A stretch of 64,000 nucleotides of DNA from Bispira polyomma (taxonomy: Eukaryota). Under the pieces are notes generated by a model. It saw only the letters and a program-made list of their open reading frames with translations. It was not told where the DNA came from and ran no database searches. The stretch spans positions 36,332,001-36,396,000 of the forward strand of contig OZ287755.1 in NCBI GenBank assembly GCA_965649765.1. Direction: 5' to 3'. The position numbers were made by a program, and so were the translations under genes. Positions 1-47,159 of the stretch are shown here, one piece after another (the first letter of the stretch is position 1; every line of letters starts with the position of its first letter).

Positions 1-85
1 CATATAGAGCTCTACTTAGCTCAATTGCTACGCCAGATCAGGTGGAGTTGGGCAAAGTTCATTTTACCACCTCAAGGCAAAAAAG

Positions 86-171
86 GTGATTCTAATACAG
101 CCTCTGATGAGAACACCCATAGGAGTTTGAAATATATTAACCAATATTAATATATAAGGCAGTCAGATTAC
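86..171 (+). ncRNA. Type I hammerhead ribozyme motif (slightly degenerate)
   Basis: Core CUGAUGA 104-110. Stem II GAACACC/GGAGUUU 111-128 with loop CAUA. GAAA 129-132. Perfect 9-bp stem III 132-140/147-155. NUH=AUA with predicted cut after 156. Stem I ACAGCCU 97-103 / AGGCAGU 157-163, extendable 86-93/165-171. Confidence 0.75.
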
Positions 172-2784
172 TCTAGTCACCTGCACCAAGTTCAAACAAA
201 CTTTTATATAATATATTAATATGTCAAAACACAAGTTTTGACTCCCATAGTTACTCCTACTCTATGATAACCTTAATTACATGATTAAGGTGAGTGACCC
301 TAAACTTCATACAATTTAAAATGGTTATCTAAATCTTATAAGATGACCTTACCTTGAAGGTTAGGACTAACTTAAGTGAAACTAGTTTTAGTATGTAGAG
401 TATATATATATATAGTTTTGTATGGAATATTTCCCTATAGCTTAGTTTAACTTTTATGCATAAGCCAGGATTACTTTGGTTGATATAGATATGGTTTGTG
501 TACTGTACACAAATATTGACACCTTGTGAGCTTTGTTTACCTGACTAGTTGACCATCTACTTCACCCAGAAGATTACTTTCGTTTCTACAAAAGCACAAA
601 TTACTTGGATGTATATGGATGTGGTTTGTGTACTGGCTATAAACAAATCAAAAGCTTGGTTTGAAGTTTTACATGTTTTCTTATTTACTAATTAGGATTA
701 TTTCCAAAAAAACTGACACTCTGTGCAAAGCATCAAAGCAGTTTAATCGAGAAAGGGGTATTTACCTTAAAATGGCTGGTACAATTAATGCAAGACTTTG
801 TGAACAAACATACACCCCCTTAAAGCTCCATTTTGCAAGACAATGAGAAAAAATGCTGTGACAGATCATTTTTATTACTATACAGATTTAAAATTATATT
901 TCTCAATCCACATGAAGTAGTACATTAAAAAAAATCATTAATTTAAAAGTAGAACTACATATCAAACTTTCACATCCGGCAAGAGTTTACAGATCTCAAA
1001 TTCATCAACCCTGCATGAAAAATTACATACAAGGGTAATAACTGTCACTAATATTTTTATTACTCTTTCCACTTTTTACAATAACTAACAGTCTCCAAAG
1101 ATACAGATGCTTAACCTCTTAGGTCACATTAGTTGACCTTGAGGTCAGATGCTCATGAAGTTCTTTCAGTATGTTTCAGTTTCACATGTGTCAGTGTTAG
1201 GAAATGTCTGATGCTGTTTGGGATAATTTATTTTACAATTTCTAATTTTTACAACTGTACAAGAATTTTAAGCAATTCTTAAAATTCAAAATGCCACTTT
1301 GGCTACCATAAAATACATAAAAGTAGGTAAAACAGTAATAAAAGAACACCATGTAAAAAGAGGTGCTAAGAAAGAGGTAAACATTCCTCTATATAATAAG
1401 CTTACTATCACATTCTTAATCCTCTTGACTTAATAACGTCTCATCATTTACGCCAATCAACAATGCACAGATAGGCTAGCTGGAAGCTTGTTCATAATAC
1501 ATAATCATCATTAACCAAAACCTAGCCTTTTAATAAACGGCCAGAATCACTATAAAATTCTGCATATATCCTGCTTTTAAGGTGATTATTCCTTCGTTAA
1601 CTCAAGCGTATTGCTTTTGGTGTTTTTATTATATCTTGCTTTTAAGGTGATTATTCCTATTCTAACACGACAACATTATTTAACAAAATATACTTCCGTT
1701 TTGTTGACCTTATTTTCTTTAAAACAAAATATAACTTGGCTCTTCCATATTGCAAAATGGGTGTAACCAAACTTTACAAAATTGTATGTTGTGAAAAAAA
1801 AGTTATTAAATAAAAGAGGTTATAGGGGAAAAAGCTTTAATGCAACAAGGACTAGATTAGGACAACAAAATGATAATGTAATAGAAAATGTCAACAACAT
1901 GTACAACACTTTCAGTGTTTCAAAAATTTAATTTACTTATACTAACACATATGATTTTTTTTTTTAATCATATTATTATGGTATATTAAATACAGACACA
2001 ACCAAATGATAATGTAATAGAAAATTTCACCTTCGGAAAATATAAACAAACGGAAGCATGTTTTGGTTCTTCCATCAAATGTACACCAACACTGCATTCA
2101 AATCAGGATGTACCCTACATTTTAACCTTGCACTCAACCAATCAGAATTGTGGACACAGCCGTGTCATGTTACAATCCTCATTAACTCTTGGTGAATCAA
2201 GTAAATTAATCTACAGATTACTGATTAACTTCTAAACAGATTAGTAGTTAGTCTTGATATAATCGTCAATATTAAAACCACAAATAATGAGATTAACTTC
2301 CTATTTTACCTACCCGTTGGTATGCATGAGTGCATAATAATCCCAATTGGCGACTGCATAGCAAGCACACTCTACCAAAACAAGTAAACTAATCTACAGA
2401 TTACTGGTCAATTTTACCTGACCGTTGGTATGCATGAGCACATAATAGCCTCGTTTGGCGATTGTATACCAAGTGCACTATACCAGGTCATTATGACCCT
2501 GTAACCGAGCATTCTCCATGCAATTGTTAACCTAAAACGGGTACATCTAATTACATTTATATGTGAAACCTGTGATACTTATAAGTGGTAACTATATAAT
2601 TTTGGGTTAAAATTAAGCCCATTAATGGACGGCCACACCATAAACGATATTGAATATACCAGTTCTTGTCCTGAAAACACCTTATTTTTGTTATTAAAAT
2701 GCTCAAAGTCAAGTCTCACACAAGTTAAAACAAGAGGAGAGTGACCTTGCGGTCACAAATCTTGGAGACATGTATCTATTTATC

Positions 2785-22910: not shown

Positions 22911-23981
22911 TCATAAATTACCCATACATACTATGAGATGAACAAAGAAAAGACCTCTGACTAGTGCAAAGAAACACTCAATGAGATCTGATGTTCTGGG
23001 AACCAAATTTCCCTTGAAAAGTACGAAAGAATAAAGAAGATAGAGGTCAGATAAGACATTTTGTGTCAAGAATTTACAATTTGCATTTTGCTTGGCAAAG
23101 CCACTACCTTTACTAGTACCACGGCCACTACTGGTATGAACCACACTATTATTTGACACGTGCCTCTGTGCATGGGCCCTTCTCAAACGGTCTAATTTTT
23201 CCACGTCGGACCACGAAAGCTTGTCCATTTCCATGTGCGTCATGATAACTGCATGACAAGCCTTCGCCGCCTCCCACGAGAAGTCTTCCGCATCTTCCAT
23301 GAGGTTGGACATATAATCCAGCATTGTTTCTCTAACCGAGTTACACTTCTCCTCCTGAATTATTCTAGTAAAACCGCATACCCACTGGGTCATGGACAGA
23401 TCATTGTACGTGGGTCTAGCACGAAAACTACCAGTGAGCACATGGTTTTGGGGCCATTCAACAACACGTTTAATTACTACGTCCACCCCACCCCCCCTTT
23501 GAGATTTGAGCTTACCCTGACTGGGAGCTTCATTCAGACGTTTTAGTTCTGCTAGCCGTAATTCGACCTGACTCTGAATTTGTGTGTTGTTTCGCAGGAA
23601 ATCAACACTAGGTACCACATTCTGAACATTTTCTTCTCTGATGGGAGGGTCAACTACTGCGGTTGTATTAATTACAGAATTATCACTAAAATTCAAATTA
23701 CTGGCCTGTTTTTTGTTTCCATCCACTGCCAATGTTGCCTCGGCGAGTTGCACACGCTGGTCCATTTTTTCCATCATCTGGCTCATGGACTGGAGCTGAA
23801 GCAGAATTTGATTCGATACCGTGTTCAGCCCCACGTCCTGAGCCATACCAGTATCTGTGTGCTCCTCGCCTTGGTCATCATTAGCATCAGAAGTGGAAGA
23901 ACCCTGAGATAGCAAACACCCAGCCCCAACCGGCCTAGCACGTTTCCCCAGACATTTAGAACAGTTTACAACCGCAGGCAT
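22911..23981 (-). CDS. Gag-like ORF1 of YR retrotransposon, truncated before the C-terminal zinc finger
   Basis: Clear paralog of 44401-45471 (QGKLKSQR, WPQNHVLTGS, QWVCGF, SWEAAKACHAV, RRAHAQRHVSN); the last ~50 aa are read-through into unrelated DNA. Confidence 0.75.
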   Translation of the reverse strand: MPAVVNCSKCLGKRARPVGAGCLLSQGSSTSDANDDQGEEHTDTGMAQDVGLNTVSNQILLQLQSMSQMMEKMDQRVQLAEATLAVDGNKKQASNLNFSDNSVINTTAVVDPPIREENVQNVVPSVDFLRNNTQIQSQVELRLAELKRLNEAPSQGKLKSQRGGGVDVVIKRVVEWPQNHVLTGSFRARPTYNDLSMTQWVCGFTRIIQEEKCNSVRETMLDYMSNLMEDAEDFSWEAAKACHAVIMTHMEMDKLSWSDVEKLDRLRRAHAQRHVSNNSVVHTSSGRGTSKGSGFAKQNANCKFLTQNVLSDLYLLYSFVLFKGNLVPRTSDLIECFFALVRGLFFVHLIVCMGNL

Positions 23982-24920
23982 GTCAGTATTTATGTAACAA
24001 TTTGTAAGACAGAAAGGACACGATACACTAGCAGACGAGCTAGTTTAGTTTTTAAACTGGTTTAGAATTAATGTAAAACTGAACTTCGAATGTAACAACA
24101 TGTCACAAATACTAGAACTTCGTTTTGACCAGCATGTTTTACAATACTGAACTTCGAATCTAACAACATGTGTTACAAATACTGTGCTATGATAGAATAA
24201 TTCACAGCAGTTTAAACACTAAGGCAAAACTTCAAAACTATCAAAACTATAAACACGTGTAGAACTTCGTTTCTGCCAGCATATTTTACAATGTTGAACT
24301 TCGTATCTAACAACATATGTTGCAAATAATGTTTTACAATACTGACTATCGAAACTATCAACACATGTAGCACTTAGTTTTTGATGTTATAAAATAGAGT
24401 CTTGCGAGTACTGCTCCTGTTTGTGAGCTAAACTAGAGGCATGTATTCAAATTTATAACATAGTTACTGATTTAGACACTCGACTACACCTTATATATTG
24501 CAGGCTGGTTTTCTAGCATATAAAACGGCTCATAGTCACCCTTATAGGGACGAGTACACAGTATATTAAACACATATTGCTGGCTGGTTTGTTAGCACAT
24601 AAAACGGCTCTCGAGTATCCCTTATAGGGACGAGTATACTGTATATTAATGAAATATTACACAACATATGTTACAAATGCTGTGATAGAATAAAAACAAC
24701 GTGAAACTTCGAAACTATCAACACGTGTAGAACTTTGTTTCTACCGACATATTGTTACAAAATAATGTTCCGTGGTCGGCTGTAGTTTTCAAAAGGAAGT
24801 TATATTCAGACTGCACAGCTTTATATAGGGAGAGCAGCAGTCAGTGACGCGTTTACAAAAACAAATAGACTGTTACCCCAGCACTGAAAGCACCAACGCT
24901 GGGGGCGCTGCCTTATAATT
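23070..24920 (-). mobile_element. 3'-truncated YR retrotransposon (5' leader + gag only)
   Basis: gag homology to 44401-45471 ends at ~23070 (NCKF). 24874-24920 aligns with 45655-45701. TATATAAA at 24827-24820. Repeat-rich leader. Confidence 0.8.
24075..24770. repeat. Degenerate tandem repeats in the gag leader (GAACTTCG-cored ~35-bp units plus a ~78-bp duplication)
   Basis: gaacttcg-type cores at ~24081, 24116, 24149, 24262, 24296, 24703, 24730; duplicated block ~24495-24570 / ~24575-24650. Confidence 0.7.
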
Positions 24921-29400: not shown

Positions 29401-30298
29401 CATTCTTCACCCTTTTAACCAGGCCAAAGCACCTTGACAAACGTAGGCTTATACTTAATCTTTCCTACCCACATAACTTGTCTGTCAACAGCTAAGTAGT
29501 TAGAGATACTTTTGATCACACAAAATTCATCTTAAGATTTCCCACCATAGATCATATTACTAGGGAGATTAGAAACACTGATAACCGTGTAGTATTTAAG
29601 ACAGATGTGGCACAAGCTTTCTGTTACCTCAGGGTCGACCCTGTTGATGCAATAAAACTGGGTATAAATTGGAATGGTAACCACTATGTTGGCGCTGCCG
29701 TGGCATTTGGCTGGGCCCATGGCAGCGCAGCATTTCAGCGATGCTTAGATATTATTGCTGACTACATGAGGTCCAGTGCTAGTAGAGCAAATGAGGGATA
29801 CACCCTCTTACATGACATACTTGACAAATTAGGGCTCCGTATAAATGAAGACAAATCAGTTACTCCTGACATTTCCATGATGTTTCTAGCAATCGACATT
29901 GATATTATTAAGGGTACCATAAGTATCAGCCAAGACAAGATAGATCAGATTTACCAAGACTTACAGAACATTATTATTAAGTCATGGCTATCACGTACTA
30001 AATATCAAAGCATGTTATTAAAATTACTCTATATACAGAGGGCCGTGTAGCCTGCAAGAATATTTATAAACAGATTATTGGCTGTCTTTAGAAACAATCC
30101 AGGTGCCAAAAGATTTAAGATCACAAACAACATTAGGCAAGACATTACTTGGTTTTTTTCATTCCTACCACAGTGCAATGGCATAACATACATATCACCT
30201 ACAAACATACCAAATATGCACGAATTTTACTTGGATGATCAACACTCTCAAACAGATTTCCAAAACCTTTCTTAGTTGCTTTTTTCGGGTTCCTGAGA

Positions 30299-30823
30299 AT
30301 GTTGAATATCGCTCCTCATTTAAAAGCCAAATTTGATCATTCTAGGCATATCTTTCGTCAAGATGTTATATTTGGCCCTCCAGAGGCTCATCTAATACTT
30401 AAATGGGCAAAGAACATGCAAAATAGGTCAGACACTCATATCATTCAGCTTCCTTCATTGCAGGACAAATTGCTTTGCCCAGTAACTGCATTAGTGAAAT
30501 TATTGCAGTCTAGACTGCTCAAACCAACTCAACCGCTTTTTGCTTCATTAGCCCCTCCTCATTACCCTGTTGTAGACTCCCACATCAGATCTGCACTAAA
30601 ATCAGTTCTACAACACTTAGGGGTGGACCATAGTTATCATGGATTTCACGAATTCCGTAGATCTGGTGCTTCCCTAGCCTTTAATAATAATGTTTCTCTA
30701 CAACAGATTATGTCACACAGCTTGTGGCGCAGCTCAGCAGTATGGGCTTATCTTCAACAGTCCTCATCTCAAGCTTCCATAGTCCCACTCACATTTACTT
30801 CCATTATCCCCTCTTCCTCTTAG
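30299..30823 (+). pseudogene. Tyrosine recombinase C-terminal fragment
   Basis: LKWAKN, GFHEFRRSGASLAF and HSLWRSSAVWAY align with 40972-41946; N-terminal half deleted. Confidence 0.85.
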
Positions 30824-40971: not shown

Positions 40972-41946
40972 CTAGTAGGTATCTTGTAGAATAGTTTTGA
41001 AGGAATCGGCAACCTGGGAACCAGCATTGGCAGAATCGGAAATGTAACGCCAGACGCAATCAGACGTCCAGGTGCCATGCCTTTGGATGTCCTGAATGGT
41101 GACATTATTGTTAAAGGCAAACGTGGCACCTGAACGCCTGAAAGCGTGAAAGGTCAAGCCAGAGTACTGCGGGCCCAGCATTAGTAAGACATTCTTAAGA
41201 TGCCTGCGAACCCTAGTATCAGTAAGGGGAATCCAACTGGCATTCTGCTTAAATTGAAACAAGGGCAGATCTTTCCCTTTGGGAGAAATAGCAAGTATGT
41301 TTTTTACAGCTTGAACCGGACATAGAATGGAATTGGTTAAAGCTGGTATGGTGAGCAAGCGAACAGCATTATTGTTTTGAAGGGTTTTAGACCATTTAAC
41401 AATGAGGACAGCATACCCTGGCTTGAAAAGGACATCCGCCCTCGCAAGCTGCTTAAGAGGAGAGTAAGCAGCAACCGAATGAGCACAGAGGTTAGACAGC
41501 CTCAGAAACGAAAAGAAACTGACAAGATAAACTGCTTTAAAAATTTGACCCATGTAAGTGCTGTTACACTTTATAATAAGAGACCTAAGCAACTGGAGGT
41601 CGAAAATTGACTTAAGTTTGACTTGCAATGGTCTATGCATTGCCAAAGCTTTATTATAATAGGTAATTCTTTTATCAGAAAAAGCGTCTACAGATATATG
41701 GAAGAGGACACACTTTGCCTTAATGGCAGAAAGATGATTAAGAACTAGACTCGCCGACACCCCATTAAACGTTAAGAACTCTAAATAAGCTAGGAGATAT
41801 AACACAGTCACCTTATGAGGAGGCCAAGACATAAAGGCTCCAAACGCCAAGAACAGCCTGAACATTCTGTTGTAGGCTCTGTTAGTGGCAGGGGTGAAGG
41901 CCAGTTCAAGTCTGTCACAAGCTTTCTGCATCAAGGAGAAGCCCAC
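40972..41946 (-). CDS. Tyrosine recombinase (phage-integrase family) of YR retrotransposon
   Basis: Complete catalytic set: R (FLRLSNL), K (KWSKT), HxxR (HAFRR), H/W (HGTW), Y (WRYI). The ORF-track start is GTG; the true start is probably supplied by splicing. Confidence 0.93.
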   Translation of the reverse strand: MGFSLMQKACDRLELAFTPATNRAYNRMFRLFLAFGAFMSWPPHKVTVLYLLAYLEFLTFNGVSASLVLNHLSAIKAKCVLFHISVDAFSDKRITYYNKALAMHRPLQVKLKSIFDLQLLRSLIIKCNSTYMGQIFKAVYLVSFFSFLRLSNLCAHSVAAYSPLKQLARADVLFKPGYAVLIVKWSKTLQNNNAVRLLTIPALTNSILCPVQAVKNILAISPKGKDLPLFQFKQNASWIPLTDTRVRRHLKNVLLMLGPQYSGLTFHAFRRSGATFAFNNNVTIQDIQRHGTWTSDCVWRYISDSANAGSQVADSFKTILQDTY

Positions 41947-41980
41947 AGGGTGTATATCTGGAAAACATGACTAACAGGTG

Positions 41981-44380
41981 CTATATAAGTGAGTTAACTT
42001 TTAATAAACTCTGGCAAGCAGGCAGCCACTGGACAGACCCAGCTAACCTAAATAACGACAAATGGTTGGCTTCAATTTCAGTCCATCTTGACAGCAGATC
42101 TGCAATTTTCTTTTCTTTACCCAACACATGTATGACAACAATATCAATATTAAACTTGCTAGCTAACATGTATATGTTCCTGGAATACGTGGCTAAGTCC
42201 GGATCTCTGGTGCGCCCTGTCTGTAAGACACTTACAACTGCCCGATTATCACATCTGACCAATATTCTACGACCTCTCCATTTATGAATCCACAATTTAA
42301 GAGCTACCAGGATGTTAAGCATCTCCAAAGAAGCAATATTGAGCTCACTCATTTCTGGAGGAATGTTAATTTGGTACACTTGTTTCTCAAAAATACCCCC
42401 CATTCCAGTAAGGCAGGCATCTAATTCAATCTCACCAGTTATGGGCTTAGGCATGAAGAAAGAAACTCCATTGAACTGTTCTGCAAAAGTAGTAAACCAG
42501 TTTAAGTCACGCCTGAATGCAGGGGTGATGGTAATGTACTTTCTGGCGTAATTATCTCTTAACAACTCGAGCATCCTATTCAAAAAGACACGAGCATACT
42601 TTACACATTTAGAAATATATAATAACAAGCCAAGTAAAGACTGGAGCTCTCTCTTAGTGCAAAATTTCTTGGATCTCCATTCCTGACACTTATCTTTAAT
42701 TTCACTTAATTTTTCAACCGGGATGGAGGTAGTACCTCGAATGGTATCCACTACTATTCCCAGGCAGACAACCTGTGTGCTGGGAGGAACCAATTTTTTC
42801 TGACTTACTGTCAACCCCAATTCTTGTAGCAGTTCTTGCAATCTAAGGAAAGTTTTTTGAATTTTGCTGGGAACCGAAAGAGCCAAAAAATCGTCGATGT
42901 AGTTGTGGACATTATGATTTTCAGAGTGCATTATGAATCGCACGGCATCCGAAATTCTCTGAAAAATCGTGCTACCATTACAATATCCGAACGGCAGAGA
43001 TTTGTCCACATAATAGGACTTCCACTTTAGACCTAGGAGGTCCACGTCGCCAGGGTCAATGGGTACGTGACGGAAAGCCCTACTTATGTCGACCTTAAAT
43101 ATCTGACATCCTCTACCCAATTTTACCACCTCACTAGTGAGATTATCAATAGATGGGTCAGACAATAAAAATTCAACACCCAAGTAAGATGACGGAGATG
43201 CTCCCGCATTAACCGACCCCCCTTTAGGCCAACTCAAGTCTACGATTACTCTCCGGTTAATTGAATTCGGTTTATGTCTCGTCATAAGGGGGGAACAATG
43301 CAAGCCCGGAATAGGAGGTTTGTCAAATGGCCCTAACATGGCTCCTAACTCACATTCTTCTCGCATATAAGCTTCTACATGCTGGGGATGTTCCTCAGCC
43401 GACTTATGATTAATCTCACTGGATTCCAGTTTTACTGAATGATCCACGTCTAGGGGGAATCCATATTTTATGAGGAGAGGCAATTGCCAATCCCAGTAAT
43501 TGTTAAGGTATTTTTTCCAACTCTCGGGTCTTAATTGAGAGGGAACAGGGATTTGCAACCCTTCATAATTGTGTCTCCCATCAGCCCGAATTAAGTCATG
43601 CATTTCCAATATGGAAAGTTCGGGCCCTCCCCCACCATGATCTGCAATCTCACAGCCCAGAGCAGAGAGAGGCGTGAATCCATAAGGATATTGACTTTGA
43701 GCTTGCCATTTTCTGTAAGTAGGATTTGAGGCAGCCTTAGCTAACATGCCTTTCTTATTTACTTTCTGCTTCAAAGCACAGGAGTATTTATCGGGACATT
43801 CGGAACTTTCCGGGCTATCTTCGGAAGCAGTTTTACTCCTCGCCTTGCCTCGGCTAATGGGCTTGTCACTAGTAACAGAAAGGAAGCGAACGGGCTCGTC
43901 AACCTTTCCACTATCATCGACCGGCAGCGACATTAAAGCTGCATACTTGTTAGCAAGAGGGAGGTCAGCCACATCCCCATTGACCCGCTGCGCTTCGCCC
44001 CCATTCAATCTCGAACAATTGACCTCCTTTGTTCTCACCTTGTCTTGTTTCGCACACATGTCAGGCTTCACAATGGGTGTCAATTGGCTCACAGAGGTAC
44101 CAAAGGGCCTCACCAAGGTGTCACTTTTGTTAGGTAATATATTCACCTTACTCTTGTCAAGCCTTTCCTGTTTTACCTGTACATAATTAATACTTCTATT
44201 TACACACCCACACTTTTGAACTGGGCCATTCTTTTGCAACGCCTGGCTATAGCTCAAGCCTGGTCTGGTGCCCTTCACATATTTACACATTTTCTGACAC
44301 ACAGACCTCTCAAATAACTGTACATCCTTAAACTTAGTGTTATAAACAAACCTACTTTTTCGCTCACCCCTTTTAGCCAC
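41981..44380 (-). CDS. Reverse transcriptase-RNase H (DIRS/Ngaro type)
   Basis: RVIVDLS, KVDISRAFRH, LPFG, YIDD; RNaseH residues ELDACL, LEMLN, CDNRAV, IADLLSR. Begins at GTG, and the frame is open back to the gag slippery site. Confidence 0.95.
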   Translation of the reverse strand: MAKRGERKSRFVYNTKFKDVQLFERSVCQKMCKYVKGTRPGLSYSQALQKNGPVQKCGCVNRSINYVQVKQERLDKSKVNILPNKSDTLVRPFGTSVSQLTPIVKPDMCAKQDKVRTKEVNCSRLNGGEAQRVNGDVADLPLANKYAALMSLPVDDSGKVDEPVRFLSVTSDKPISRGKARSKTASEDSPESSECPDKYSCALKQKVNKKGMLAKAASNPTYRKWQAQSQYPYGFTPLSALGCEIADHGGGGPELSILEMHDLIRADGRHNYEGLQIPVPSQLRPESWKKYLNNYWDWQLPLLIKYGFPLDVDHSVKLESSEINHKSAEEHPQHVEAYMREECELGAMLGPFDKPPIPGLHCSPLMTRHKPNSINRRVIVDLSWPKGGSVNAGASPSSYLGVEFLLSDPSIDNLTSEVVKLGRGCQIFKVDISRAFRHVPIDPGDVDLLGLKWKSYYVDKSLPFGYCNGSTIFQRISDAVRFIMHSENHNVHNYIDDFLALSVPSKIQKTFLRLQELLQELGLTVSQKKLVPPSTQVVCLGIVVDTIRGTTSIPVEKLSEIKDKCQEWRSKKFCTKRELQSLLGLLLYISKCVKYARVFLNRMLELLRDNYARKYITITPAFRRDLNWFTTFAEQFNGVSFFMPKPITGEIELDACLTGMGGIFEKQVYQINIPPEMSELNIASLEMLNILVALKLWIHKWRGRRILVRCDNRAVVSVLQTGRTRDPDLATYSRNIYMLASKFNIDIVVIHVLGKEKKIADLLSRWTEIEANHLSLFRLAGSVQWLPACQSLLKVNSLI

Positions 44381-44410
44381 TGCATCTACGCAGTGGCCCC
44401 TCAGTTTTTT
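44375..44410 (-). promoter_or_regulatory. Predicted -1 programmed ribosomal frameshift signal, gag to pol
   Basis: A_AAA_AAC 44410-44404 in gag frame right before TGA; 5-nt spacer; stem GGCCACUGC/GCAGUGGCU 44398-44375; -1 frame is continuous with pol. Confidence 0.8.
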
Positions 44411-45471
44411 GCCCCTTTCTTATGACATTCACTAGTCTTATGGCTGCCCTCGCATGTCTCGCAATGATGTCTATAGAACTGACCTCCAGTATTGTGAGAG
44501 CTGGGAAATCTACAATTTCCTTCCTGATAAAAGCGACAAGACATTGCACCTTTACAACCGCCAGATTTACTGCTACTAAAGTTACCTAGCCGTCCACTAA
44601 CCCCAGAGGAATTTCTACTGTTCGACACATGGCGCTGAGCATGGGCTCTTCGAATTCGATCCATCTTATCTACCTCTAGCCAACCTAGCTTATCCATCTC
44701 CATGCTGGTCAATACGACTGCATGGCAGGCCTTAACTGACTCCCAAGAACAATCCTGGGCATCCTCCATAAGACCCCCCATGTAATCCAGCATGGCATTC
44801 TTCACTTCGATCGACTTTTCTTCGTGAGCGATCCGAGCGAAACCACACACCCATTGCAACACGGTTAACTCATCGTAGCTAGGCCGAGACTTAGAACTAC
44901 CCGTCAGCACATAATTTTGAGGCCAGGCGGTGACCTTCTTTACCAATACCTCATTCGCCCCACTACGCTGGGACTTCAGTTTACCTTGCGAGGTGGTTTC
45001 ATTCAACGTTTTCAGATCTTTCAATCTCTGCTCCACTTGGAGCTGTATTAGGGCATTCTGGTTTAAAAATTCCATGCCAGGAATTATACTGTCGGACGTA
45101 GCGATAGATGGGCTCTTACCTACGTCAGCAGAGCAACTAGCAGGCCTGACAACACTAGAATTCAACAAACTACTACTTGCCTGAACGGGGACCTGATGAC
45201 TTGCCTGACTACTGGTAAGGTTCGCCGCCAATGCTGCCTCATTCCTCTGAACCCGCTGGTCCATTTTTACCATTAATTCATTCATCGAGTGCAGTTGAAG
45301 TAATATAGCGTTGGTAACTGTATCGCCTGACTCACCGTTCGCGGGTTCAGTGGCTGAAGCAGCATCGATCTCCTCCCCAGAGACAGAGTCAGAAACTTCT
45401 GCAATAACGCAATTTCGCCCGACAGGACGCTCATGTTTGGTTAAGCATTGACTACAATCAAAGACAGGCAT
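44401..45471 (-). CDS. Gag-like ORF1 of YR retrotransposon
   Basis: ATG start; N-terminal CxxCxxxH...C motif; coiled-coil segments; C-terminal Cys/His finger CRFYQEGNC...HCETCEGSHKTSEC; position directly upstream of RT. Confidence 0.9.
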   Translation of the reverse strand: MPVFDCSQCLTKHERPVGRNCVIAEVSDSVSGEEIDAASATEPANGESGDTVTNAILLQLHSMNELMVKMDQRVQRNEAALAANLTSSQASHQVPVQASSSLLNSSVVRPASCSADVGKSPSIATSDSIIPGMEFLNQNALIQLQVEQRLKDLKTLNETTSQGKLKSQRSGANEVLVKKVTAWPQNYVLTGSSKSRPSYDELTVLQWVCGFARIAHEEKSIEVKNAMLDYMGGLMEDAQDCSWESVKACHAVVLTSMEMDKLGWLEVDKMDRIRRAHAQRHVSNSRNSSGVSGRLGNFSSSKSGGCKGAMSCRFYQEGNCRFPSSHNTGGQFYRHHCETCEGSHKTSECHKKGAKN

Positions 45472-47159
45472 GACTAGATGGTGTTTGACTAAAATATTGT
45501 AAATTATAAAATCATATACACCATAAACAAAATGTCACCCAAACAAAATTTTAAACTAGTTGTTGCTCTGCTGACGAAACGATAAAGGCGAGAGAATTTG
45601 AAAAGGAGAGCCTTATATAGTCGTACACCATCCCATAATAGTAGAACAGGCTGGTACCCCAGAACTGAGGCCACGAACGCTGAGGGCGTTCGCTTACAAT
45701 TCCACCCCTTTATTGGGGGAGTTGGTCTGGTGATCATAAGGTTCCTATTTCGACTGCTGTTGATGCCTCTACGTTGTTTTGTTGTGAGATAAGATCCTTT
45801 GGTAAGATGTGAACACAGAATTGCTGAATGCTGACGATCCAGGTTTGGTTGTAGTGGAACAAGCTCACCAAATTATGATGTAAAGATTACTATATAAATG
45901 CTTTATAATATAACCTATTATTTCTATTTCAGTGATGTTGGAAAATGGAAAACGCAAGTAAGTTTTCCACTTTTGTTATTTGTAAACCCACCCACCAATA
46001 TGCCTTTCTGTTGGCATGATGTGGTGGTTCTGATTATTATATAAGTACTACATGCTTCTTTTTCACTGGGCCACCCAAAAAACATTTTATGTAATTAAAA
46101 TGCATCATATATGAAATTTGGGCATGTATTAATATTGCATTTCCATAGATCTTTTTCTACTTAACACAAATACATTGTAAGCTTTACAATATTCTACCGT
46201 CGATTTACTTATCAAATGGCTCCCATATAAACTTAGCCATATCTAAAATATTTACAAGTATGTGAGTGCAGCTAAGTGACAGTGTGTAATTAATTTGGAT
46301 TAAATAAACTTCAGTTACTTTAGAAAGGCTTCTTATATCCAATATATTTTGAATGATAGGAATCACTACAGTGTAAACCTCCGGCATTAGGTGCAACATC
46401 GAAACGGTCTTTCTTTATACCCCAGGTTCCAGTTTCCACATAGCCCTCGACCATCAGACTTATCTGTGCTATTCAGAAAACTGACTCCTTCAGCAAAGTT
46501 TTCAAACATATTCTATCCACATAGCTTATATGGCTTATCTTCCCATCAGTAACGATAGGCCAGGATCATTCCGTTGTCACGTATCCCAAGTTATTGAGAC
46601 ACGTGCCAATGATAGGTAGTTAGAAAAGGCCCATGTTTAAAGATAACTCAGGCTTTCTAAAAGATAAGTCAATGGGATGGCTCCTATTTAAAAGATAACT
46701 CCGGCAGACAAAAGATAACTCGGCGGTGACAGCAATAACTTTGGAGAAAAATCTTATTGGCCAACGAGTTTTGGAGTGGTTGCCAGTATACATAAAAGAC
46801 CATGACAGACGTCTTCATCATAATCAATTCCAGCATAAAGAGAATACTCATATATTGGAACAAAAGACATACTGTACTGAGACAGGGTCTTTATTTGAGT
46901 GATAAAATAAAATATTATAATGCCACCAAAACGGAAAGTAACAAAGAGGAGGACAGAGACAGTGGAGGAGGAGGAGTAAAGGGAGTTCCATCTGGGGGGA
47001 TATACTTTGTAAGAAAGCGTGCCAGAAACACAGCTGTCGCAGATGGTATTGAGGTTGAAGGTGAATGAGACCCAGGATAAGACAGAAGACACAGGAAACA
47101 CATGACACCGCTGGGGAGAGTGAAGTGACTGGTATCATCAGGAGGCAAAAGAAAAGGGA

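Follow-up and report, generated by a model that had tools for sequence, protein, structure and literature searches.

A likely hammerhead ribozyme at the start of the window

The window, by which we mean the whole 64,000-nt stretch analysed, opens inside a copy of an element that carries a putative hammerhead ribozyme. The features of this copy and of the adjoining flank are:

1..212 (+), 3' part of a copy, truncated at its 5' end, of a 1,269-bp unit that almost certainly derives from a Penelope-like element (PLE), 93.4% identical to the reference
28..47 (+), GC-rich hairpin 5' of the ribozyme, perfect in family copies and with two changes here
84..182 (+), likely type I hammerhead with an extended stem I, cut predicted after A156
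100-103 / 157-160, stem I (GCCU/AGGC), from the sequence
104..110 (+), core CUGAUGA, read from the sequence and invariant in 16 family representatives
111-128, stem II, with a G-U closing pair and one A.A mismatch, from the sequence
129..132 (+), core GAAA, read from the sequence and invariant in 16 family representatives
132-140 / 147-155, stem III, 9 bp, from the sequence
156, last position of the cleavage triplet (A156), from the sequence
205..212 (+), site S1, a preferred 3' end of copies about 50 nt past the predicted cut, putatively a reverse transcriptase (RT) start
213..420 (no strand assigned), flank with AACCTTA/TAAGGT words, outside the element and not of tyrosine-recombinase (YR) type

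A preliminary description had proposed a type I hammerhead fold here, and sequence, folding and family comparison bear it out: CUGANGA, GAAA and NUH follow in order around three helices, with helix I open. The positions of the triplet and the stems likewise agree with the cut it had placed after A156. The folding energy of 80-175 in isolation is not significant against shuffled sequences (z -1.16). With the context of 77-183, the hammerhead fold comes within 0.5 kcal/mol of the MFE in the window copy and is itself the MFE in a typical copy, and distal stem I extends to 182, beyond the end at 171 first given.

The core pattern matched 638 times genome-wide and never in a reversed control. Among 13 distinct stem variants, which are related and not independent sequences and whose pairing counts are no probability, stem II pairs in 60 of 78 cells (shuffle mean 30, maximum 48) and stem III in 86 of 91 (mean 38, maximum 56). 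Position 3 of stem II occurs as A-U, U-A and C-G among the copies. In place of the G10.1-C11.1 pair the window copy has a G-U pair at 10.1-11.1. Because position 128 is C, giving a G-C closing pair, in 28 of 30 copies, and because four of the six CpGs of the reference unit have decayed in the window copy, we conclude from the aligned copies that T128 and its G-U pair are a decayed G-C, as had been proposed from CpG loss.

In Rfam, Hammerhead_1, the model that had been suggested, had no match at E<=10. The only relevant match was RAGATH-1-hammerhead at 74-161 (29.2 bits, E 0.014), yet this score and the 34.2 bits of typical copies lie under its gathering score of 56.3, and no Rfam family attains its own gathering score for the ribozyme in the window or in typical copies. 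Overall, the type I hammerhead fold at 84-182 is real, slightly decayed and beyond chance occurrence, and self-cleavage is likely. Since its helix III is long, it is predicted to act as a monomer, short helix III being associated with dimer action in the available text of PMC4209133.

The ribozyme lies in a non-coding derivative of a Penelope-like element

A 141-bp query drew 476 candidates from the 1.04-Gb genome, of which 40 were scored, at 96-97%. The copies share a unit of 1,269 bp, found in partial tandem arrangements, as inverted arms and in one long array, with tandem units at L014, L016 and L019 and in the array (L069/L074). The window copy measures 726 bp in total, from 513 bp upstream of the window to about position 212, and spans unit positions 599 to 55 at 93.4% identity to one reference copy. 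A hairpin noted earlier at about 18-53 does belong with the ribozyme, lying at 28-47 within the same element; that element is not the YR retrotransposon first supposed.

The unit contains a broken GIY-YIG C-terminus, and a search with this piece reached long open frames. Compared with one such locus (L061), unit 1-253 corresponds to the leader and the start of an upstream frame, ORF-A (87%), unit 254-491 to the GIY-YIG tail and 3' UTR (91%), with the end of the long ORF 3.1 kb further on, and unit 1101-1269 to the region preceding the ribozyme (77%). Unit 254-687 runs on through the parent 3' spacer, and at 727-753 the unit holds the beginning of another parent ORF. The deletion junction at 253/254 is sharp, and the same join occurs in contigs from two sequencing runs of one study, possibly the window's own source. 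Splicing was rejected as the origin of the deletion, the junction being without GT...AG ends. What the unit retains is the hammerhead, the start of the upstream ORF, the final ~60 GIY-YIG codons and a spacer rich in CRE-like sites.

Because it matches an RT-GIY-YIG element piece by piece, the unit is, almost certainly on this mapping, a non-autonomous PLE derivative with multiple deletions, and it is likely mobilised by the parent's RT-GIY-YIG protein. With only broken ORF pieces it is a tandem non-coding unit of the kind that characterises non-LTR retrozymes, and at 1,269 bp it is outside the small monomers of that class. We found no autonomous copy with exactly the unit's ribozyme sequence; the nearest parent family is 77-91% identical.

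Further derivatives comprise a sister subfamily at ~90% (L071, L072), forms of 1,706 bp (L109) and ~840 bp (L110), and L117. Each of these has retained the hammerhead together with ~55-70 codons (about 165-200 nt) of ORF-A, and L109 and L110 additionally keep the S2 motif (see below) and the spacer. Several derivatives arose independently from PLE parents, keeping similar pieces.

The long array (G000:C7:61483.6-61496.4 kb) holds ~12 units of 1,269-bp and 922-bp forms, the latter being the unit minus 582-927, and their repeating order suggests expansion at the DNA level. One unrelated element of ~700 bp interrupts several unit copies (L012:2729, L015:1772, L023:1754 and L004, oriented coordinates). 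L017 and L018 are segmental duplicates, as are L002 and L003, which are identical in insertion and flanks.

The parent is a three-ORF Penelope-like element

One complete parent period, 5,488 bp at L073, runs hammerhead, ORF-A, RT-endonuclease (RT-EN), spacer, C2H2 zinc-finger (ZF) ORF, hammerhead. Periods elsewhere measure 5,436 bp (L107) and 5,963 bp (L108), so that parents span about 5.4-6.0 kb, and at L108 all three ORFs are intact (259, 813 and 353 aa). A zinc-finger query of the genome scored 149 matches, the most distant at 48% identity, and among the 20 regions read this gene order recurs in divergent families. ORF-A encodes a predicted helical protein of ~260 aa and the RT-GIY-YIG frame one of ~800 aa. 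Pfam identified RVT_1 (E 8.7e-8), GIY-YIG (1.2e-5) and zf-C2H2 (5.2e-10), the first two on one long ORF and both above the Pfam cut-offs.

The parent has the PLE-type RT and the C-terminal GIY-YIG domain with CCHH motif of endonuclease-bearing (EN+) PLEs, together with their partial tandems, 5' truncation, inverted arms, target duplications and a hammerhead in the repeat; it departs from their single ORF in having three conserved ORFs. RT-EN carries a DKG motif, a CX5CxxC linker, present in P0001 and L061 and with its last C altered in P0005, and a CxxC inside GIY-YIG. In the available text of PMC8557442, a CX2-5CxxC linker before the endonuclease and a DKG motif are marks of Neptune/Nematis, and by its DKG and CX5CxxC motifs the parent would be of this type.

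Between families, RT-EN is 65-89% identical, ORF-A 42-70% and the ZF protein 32-76%. Judged by dN/dS over the 11 of 40 pairs that were free of synonymous saturation, all three ORFs are under purifying selection, with values of 0.07-0.18 for ZF (from 4 of 28 pairs, the others being saturated at synonymous sites), 0.13-0.18 for ORF-A (4 of 6) and 0.08-0.12 for RT-EN (3 of 6).

ORF-A matched no Pfam family above cut-off, and its Atlas matches were under 0.9. Structure prediction gave a helical model (pLDDT 67) that matched nothing in the PDB at E<=0.001. An ORF-A profile found 172 clusters in public data; since the best 150 of these are all <=290 aa, they would be stand-alone proteins. None of ten relatives that were looked up carries a name.

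In the alignment, the ZF protein shows two C2H2 fingers and an acidic end, and S/T-Q-T and G-x-N-T motifs are conserved in it. We take the two motifs to resemble LC8 dynein-light-chain TQT sites, and the acidic end presumably resembles activation domains. Its C-terminus is acidic and amphipathic in L073:1331-2104 and relatives (alignment A6). The relatives of the ORF were only generic C2H2 look-alikes and three unnamed full-length proteins. Tentatively, the ZF protein could be the element's own transcription regulator.

Four families and the unit each have one or two perfect TGACGTCA sites in the spacer 5' of the ZF ORF; we assume these to be CRE promoter elements. Beside the CRE-like sites, a strong 5' splice-donor consensus lies on the minus strand (L073:~1190-1200, unit ~640-650); it is present in B-family parents and in the unit, and may mark an antisense transcript.

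Insertions end at two preferred sites that are used in pairs

Across loci L001-L060, 62 of 86 3' ends fall at one of two sites, and the 87 5' ends are scattered. S1, at unit 48-58, accounts for 26 of the 86 and S2, at unit 482-500 and ~50 nt past the endonuclease stop, for 36. The sites are 440 nt apart in the unit and ~3.45 kb apart in parents (2.0-2.5 kb the other way); the end sites thus lie 0.44-3.5 kb apart, unlike the 30-40-bp tail of EN+ PLEs. Just after both, a T-rich stretch and YTGGGY occur in all families read. A 5-bp stem is conserved at S2; at S1 the families have no RNA structure in common, and no stem-loop is shared by both sites.

Among 48 whole stretches, 19 (two of them one duplicated insertion) have S1 and S2 at opposite outer ends, 8 combine a standard with a non-standard end, 18 are one-armed (14 ending at S2, 4 at S1) and 3 are of other kinds. 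A second set of 34 whole stretches, drawn from 48 larger loci of six reference families, gave S1+S2 in 24, of which 18 were called by script and 6 by position just outside the script windows. Among these, all 8 whole regions that had been selected for carrying two ribozymes in opposite orientation were S1+S2, though this choice should favour S1+S1, a combination seen in neither the 48-set nor the 34-set. S2+S2, absent from the 48-set, was seen once, in (TA)n (L062+L073). Of 43 inverted insertions, 42 are therefore S1+S2 (under free choice P would be about 5e-12, for loci chosen by ribozyme, EN or ZF queries and not at random), and the pairing is near-obligate.

Target duplications of 12-16 bp with 81% A+T flank 15 of the 19 S1+S2 insertions, both outer ends adjoining the duplication, and three others lie in (TA)n. 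In 12 of 18 insertions the two arms cover overlapping parts of the unit, and in 4 of 18 they exceed one unit, which requires a multimeric or circular template. S1 arms cross the cut site in 17 of 18 insertions; only one of the 86 3' ends coincides with the predicted cut, and no accumulation of 5' ends is seen there. The one such end, in place of S1, belongs to an inverted insertion with a 14-bp target duplication (L040, G000:C1:65309396) and may reflect priming on a self-cleaved RNA end. The window copy is a one-armed S1 product that lacks S2 and most of the putative promoter and has a weakened stem II; it is probably inactive. Its candidate target duplication is of 7 bp only.

A proposed life cycle

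We consider it highly probable that a decayed, likely self-cleaving hammerhead here ends a retrozyme-type internal-deletion derivative of a three-ORF PLE, likely mobilised by the protein of the latter, and we include in this reading the following priming scheme. A promoter in the CRE-rich spacer would drive read-through transcription of tandem units, and the hammerhead would cut these transcripts to unit length. The unit-length RNAs might then be re-joined into circles. The RT-EN protein would bind near the start of ORF-A and introduce two nicks ~12-16 bp apart, one in each strand of AT-rich DNA. From each 3'-OH, cDNA synthesis would begin at a separate internal RNA site, S1 for one strand and S2 for the other. 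The expected product would be a pair of head-to-head arms in which both outer ends are 3' ends.

Two-site twin priming, taken alone, seems to us probable. In the available text on the anole PLE in vitro (PMC11167929), both strands are cut and extended, RT begins at two adjacent internal sites that match the 30-40-bp tail, the first 172 nt of the ORF are required, and the ribozyme is dispensable for insertion, uncleaved RNA being the main substrate. The first three of these findings agree with the scheme. In view of the dispensable ribozyme, we weigh a circular template and uncleaved tandem RNA about equally at this step.

The strongest competing account, to which we give somewhat less than an even chance, makes uncleaved tandem RNA the template and keeps the ribozyme outside copying, where it would serve expression, separating a capped ZF message from an ORF-A/RT-EN message, or be a passenger. 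The predicted cut does sit between the ZF ORF and ORF-A, ribozyme mutants still insert in vitro (PMC11167929, as far as that source is available), and the near absence of ends at the cut, with S1 arms running through it, is as this account expects; the same observations, however, also fit a re-ligated circle. Moreover, the ribozyme stays intact in non-coding derivatives, which have no messages to separate, and invertebrate retrozymes occur as circular RNAs (PMC7229834, available text).

We regard as unlikely the proposal that the S1+S2 asymmetry reflects one priming event followed by snap-back or self-priming, or that S2 is the physical 3' end of the transcript. Self-priming has been proposed for inverted PLE junctions (available text of PMC3846280), and S2 lies just 5' of the putative promoter, a place at which transcription of a unit could stop. 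Against this proposal, both outer ends adjoin the 12-16-bp duplication, and each site also occurs alone, in the one-armed insertions. The similar T-rich and YTGGGY sequence after both sites in all families read points the same way, towards twin priming at two sites.

A wider reading, which we put forward tentatively, is that twin priming at S1 and S2 belongs to an undescribed and widespread three-gene PLE lineage (helical ORF1, RT-GIY-YIG, C2H2 regulator with CRE promoter). Such a lineage would carry out programmed asymmetric twin priming on hammerhead-processed circular RNA at obligate sites 0.4-3.5 kb apart, and its retrozymes would map the minimal cis set of hammerhead, S1, ORF-A start, S2 and promoter.

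Two other origins of the stretch

It is very improbable that the stretch is merely what remains of an autonomous PLE's truncated pLTR and that no independent non-autonomous family lies behind it. The window copy ends at S1 and hence is without the deletion junction, as such a remnant would be, but the 513 bp upstream of the window match the 1,269-bp unit end to end (93%), including parts missing from the parent, and sister copies at 95-99% continue into the junction.

The preliminary description had tentatively linked the ribozyme to a YR retrotransposon, and this link is refuted. Among 30 loci picked by ribozyme similarity, 26 have PLE ORF pieces and one has a YR match within 1.5 kb. For 115 ribozyme-bearing loci, which overlap and were partly picked by PLE proteins, the counts are 109 with PLE ORF pieces and 5 with DIRS/YR protein matches nearby. 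No DNA is common to the unit and the window's DIRS/YR elements, the unit matches nothing else in the window, and the nearest YR-type ORF is more than 22 kb from the ribozyme. The linked recombinase and RT-RNase H ORFs and the shared terminal repeats that define DIRS/YR elements were not found with the ribozyme. The AACCTTA/TAAGGT repeats at 270-380, earlier likened to YR 3' UTRs, fall outside the element, in a flank (213-420) that has one other weak genome match (65%) and no likeness to the window's YR elements. Literature searches combining hammerhead ribozymes with DIRS or tyrosine recombinase returned PLE work only.

A DIRS-type tyrosine-recombinase retrotransposon as host of the ribozyme, suggested by the DIRS/YR elements in the window and by the 5 of 115 loci near such matches, has a negligible probability and was rejected: the unit maps piecewise onto an RT-GIY-YIG element, PLE pieces predominate in both sets (in the larger partly by selection), and at L147 a copy has inserted into a DIRS element and is flanked by a 12-bp duplication of its own.

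That L147 copy consists of two units lying between the gag-like and RT matches (G000:C9:23088500-23096500). In the window, a DIRS-type element on the minus strand at 40972-45534 has open gag-like, RT-RNase H (812 aa) and tyrosine-recombinase (332 aa) frames, and degenerate DIRS relatives lie at 22911-24044 and 29496-30823.

Comparison with known systems

The ribozyme itself is ordinary; its context opens two PLE questions to testing. One concerns inverted PLE insertions with unequal ends, for which distant and near-obligately paired sites let strand-specific priming be read from the genome. The other is the origin of animal retrozymes, where independent deletion derivatives beside intact parents indicate the RNA pieces that a PLE protein requires. 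The single-ORF picture of endonuclease-bearing PLEs would also be extended by a conserved zinc-finger ORF and a separate ORF1. The comparisons below draw on the available portions of the sources cited.

It was already known that PLE repeats contain hammerheads (PMC4209133), that animals have retrozymes (PMC7229834) and that the latter originate from PLEs (bioRxiv 10.64898/2026.07.22.740005). The ribozymes described here share type I topology, G10.1-C11.1 and a terminal-repeat location with PLE hammerheads (PMC4209133) and RF03152, although they score 29-34 bits against the gathering score of 56.3 of that family, RAGATH-1-hammerhead. Metazoan PLE hammerheads have a minimal helix III and act as dimers (PMC4209133), whereas the helix III of 7-10 bp found here resembles fungal and protist variants in the same source.

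EN+ PLEs of Neptune/Nematis type share with the parent the DKG RT, the C-terminal GIY-YIG with internal CxxC, the CX5CxxC linker, the hammerhead, partial tandems, inverted 5'-truncated arms and AT-rich or (TA)n targets (PMC8557442). They are described as single-ORF elements (PMC8557442; PMC6431247), whereas the present parents add a conserved upstream helical ORF-A and a downstream C2H2 ORF. An upstream gag-like PLE ORF is reported, in the available text of PMC8557442, only for two Chlamys families of Chara, and the word 'C2H2' occurs 0 times in the supplement of that paper. We found no C2H2 ORF or three-ORF PLE in the literature searched; Repbase, subscription journals and the preprint supplement might hold such families.

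Anole Poseidon PAc (PMC11167929, PMC3846280) likewise has two internal starts, priming on both strands and often unequal inverted ends. Its start sites are 30-40 nt apart and its tail is optional, whereas the sites described here are 0.44-3.5 kb apart and their pairing is near-obligate; the literature searched contained no distant paired RT starts or 'twin priming' in Penelope elements. The first 172 nt of the ORF that the anole PLE needs (PMC11167929) compare with the ~165-200 nt of ORF-A kept by the derivatives.

With animal non-LTR retrozymes (PMC7229834; bioRxiv 10.64898/2026.07.22.740005) the unit shares non-coding tandem units with one type I hammerhead each, low GC, an occurrence as both dispersed monomers and arrays, and derivation from PLEs. 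It differs in size, at 1,269 bp (with families of ~1,706 and ~840 bp beside it) against ~300 bp typically and 972 bp at most in known retrozymes, a published maximum that comes from a search limited to 1,000. It differs also in how its descent is recognised: that of known retrozymes by similarity to the pLTR, that of the present units not by such similarity alone but also by internal deletions that have kept pieces of the parental ORFs.
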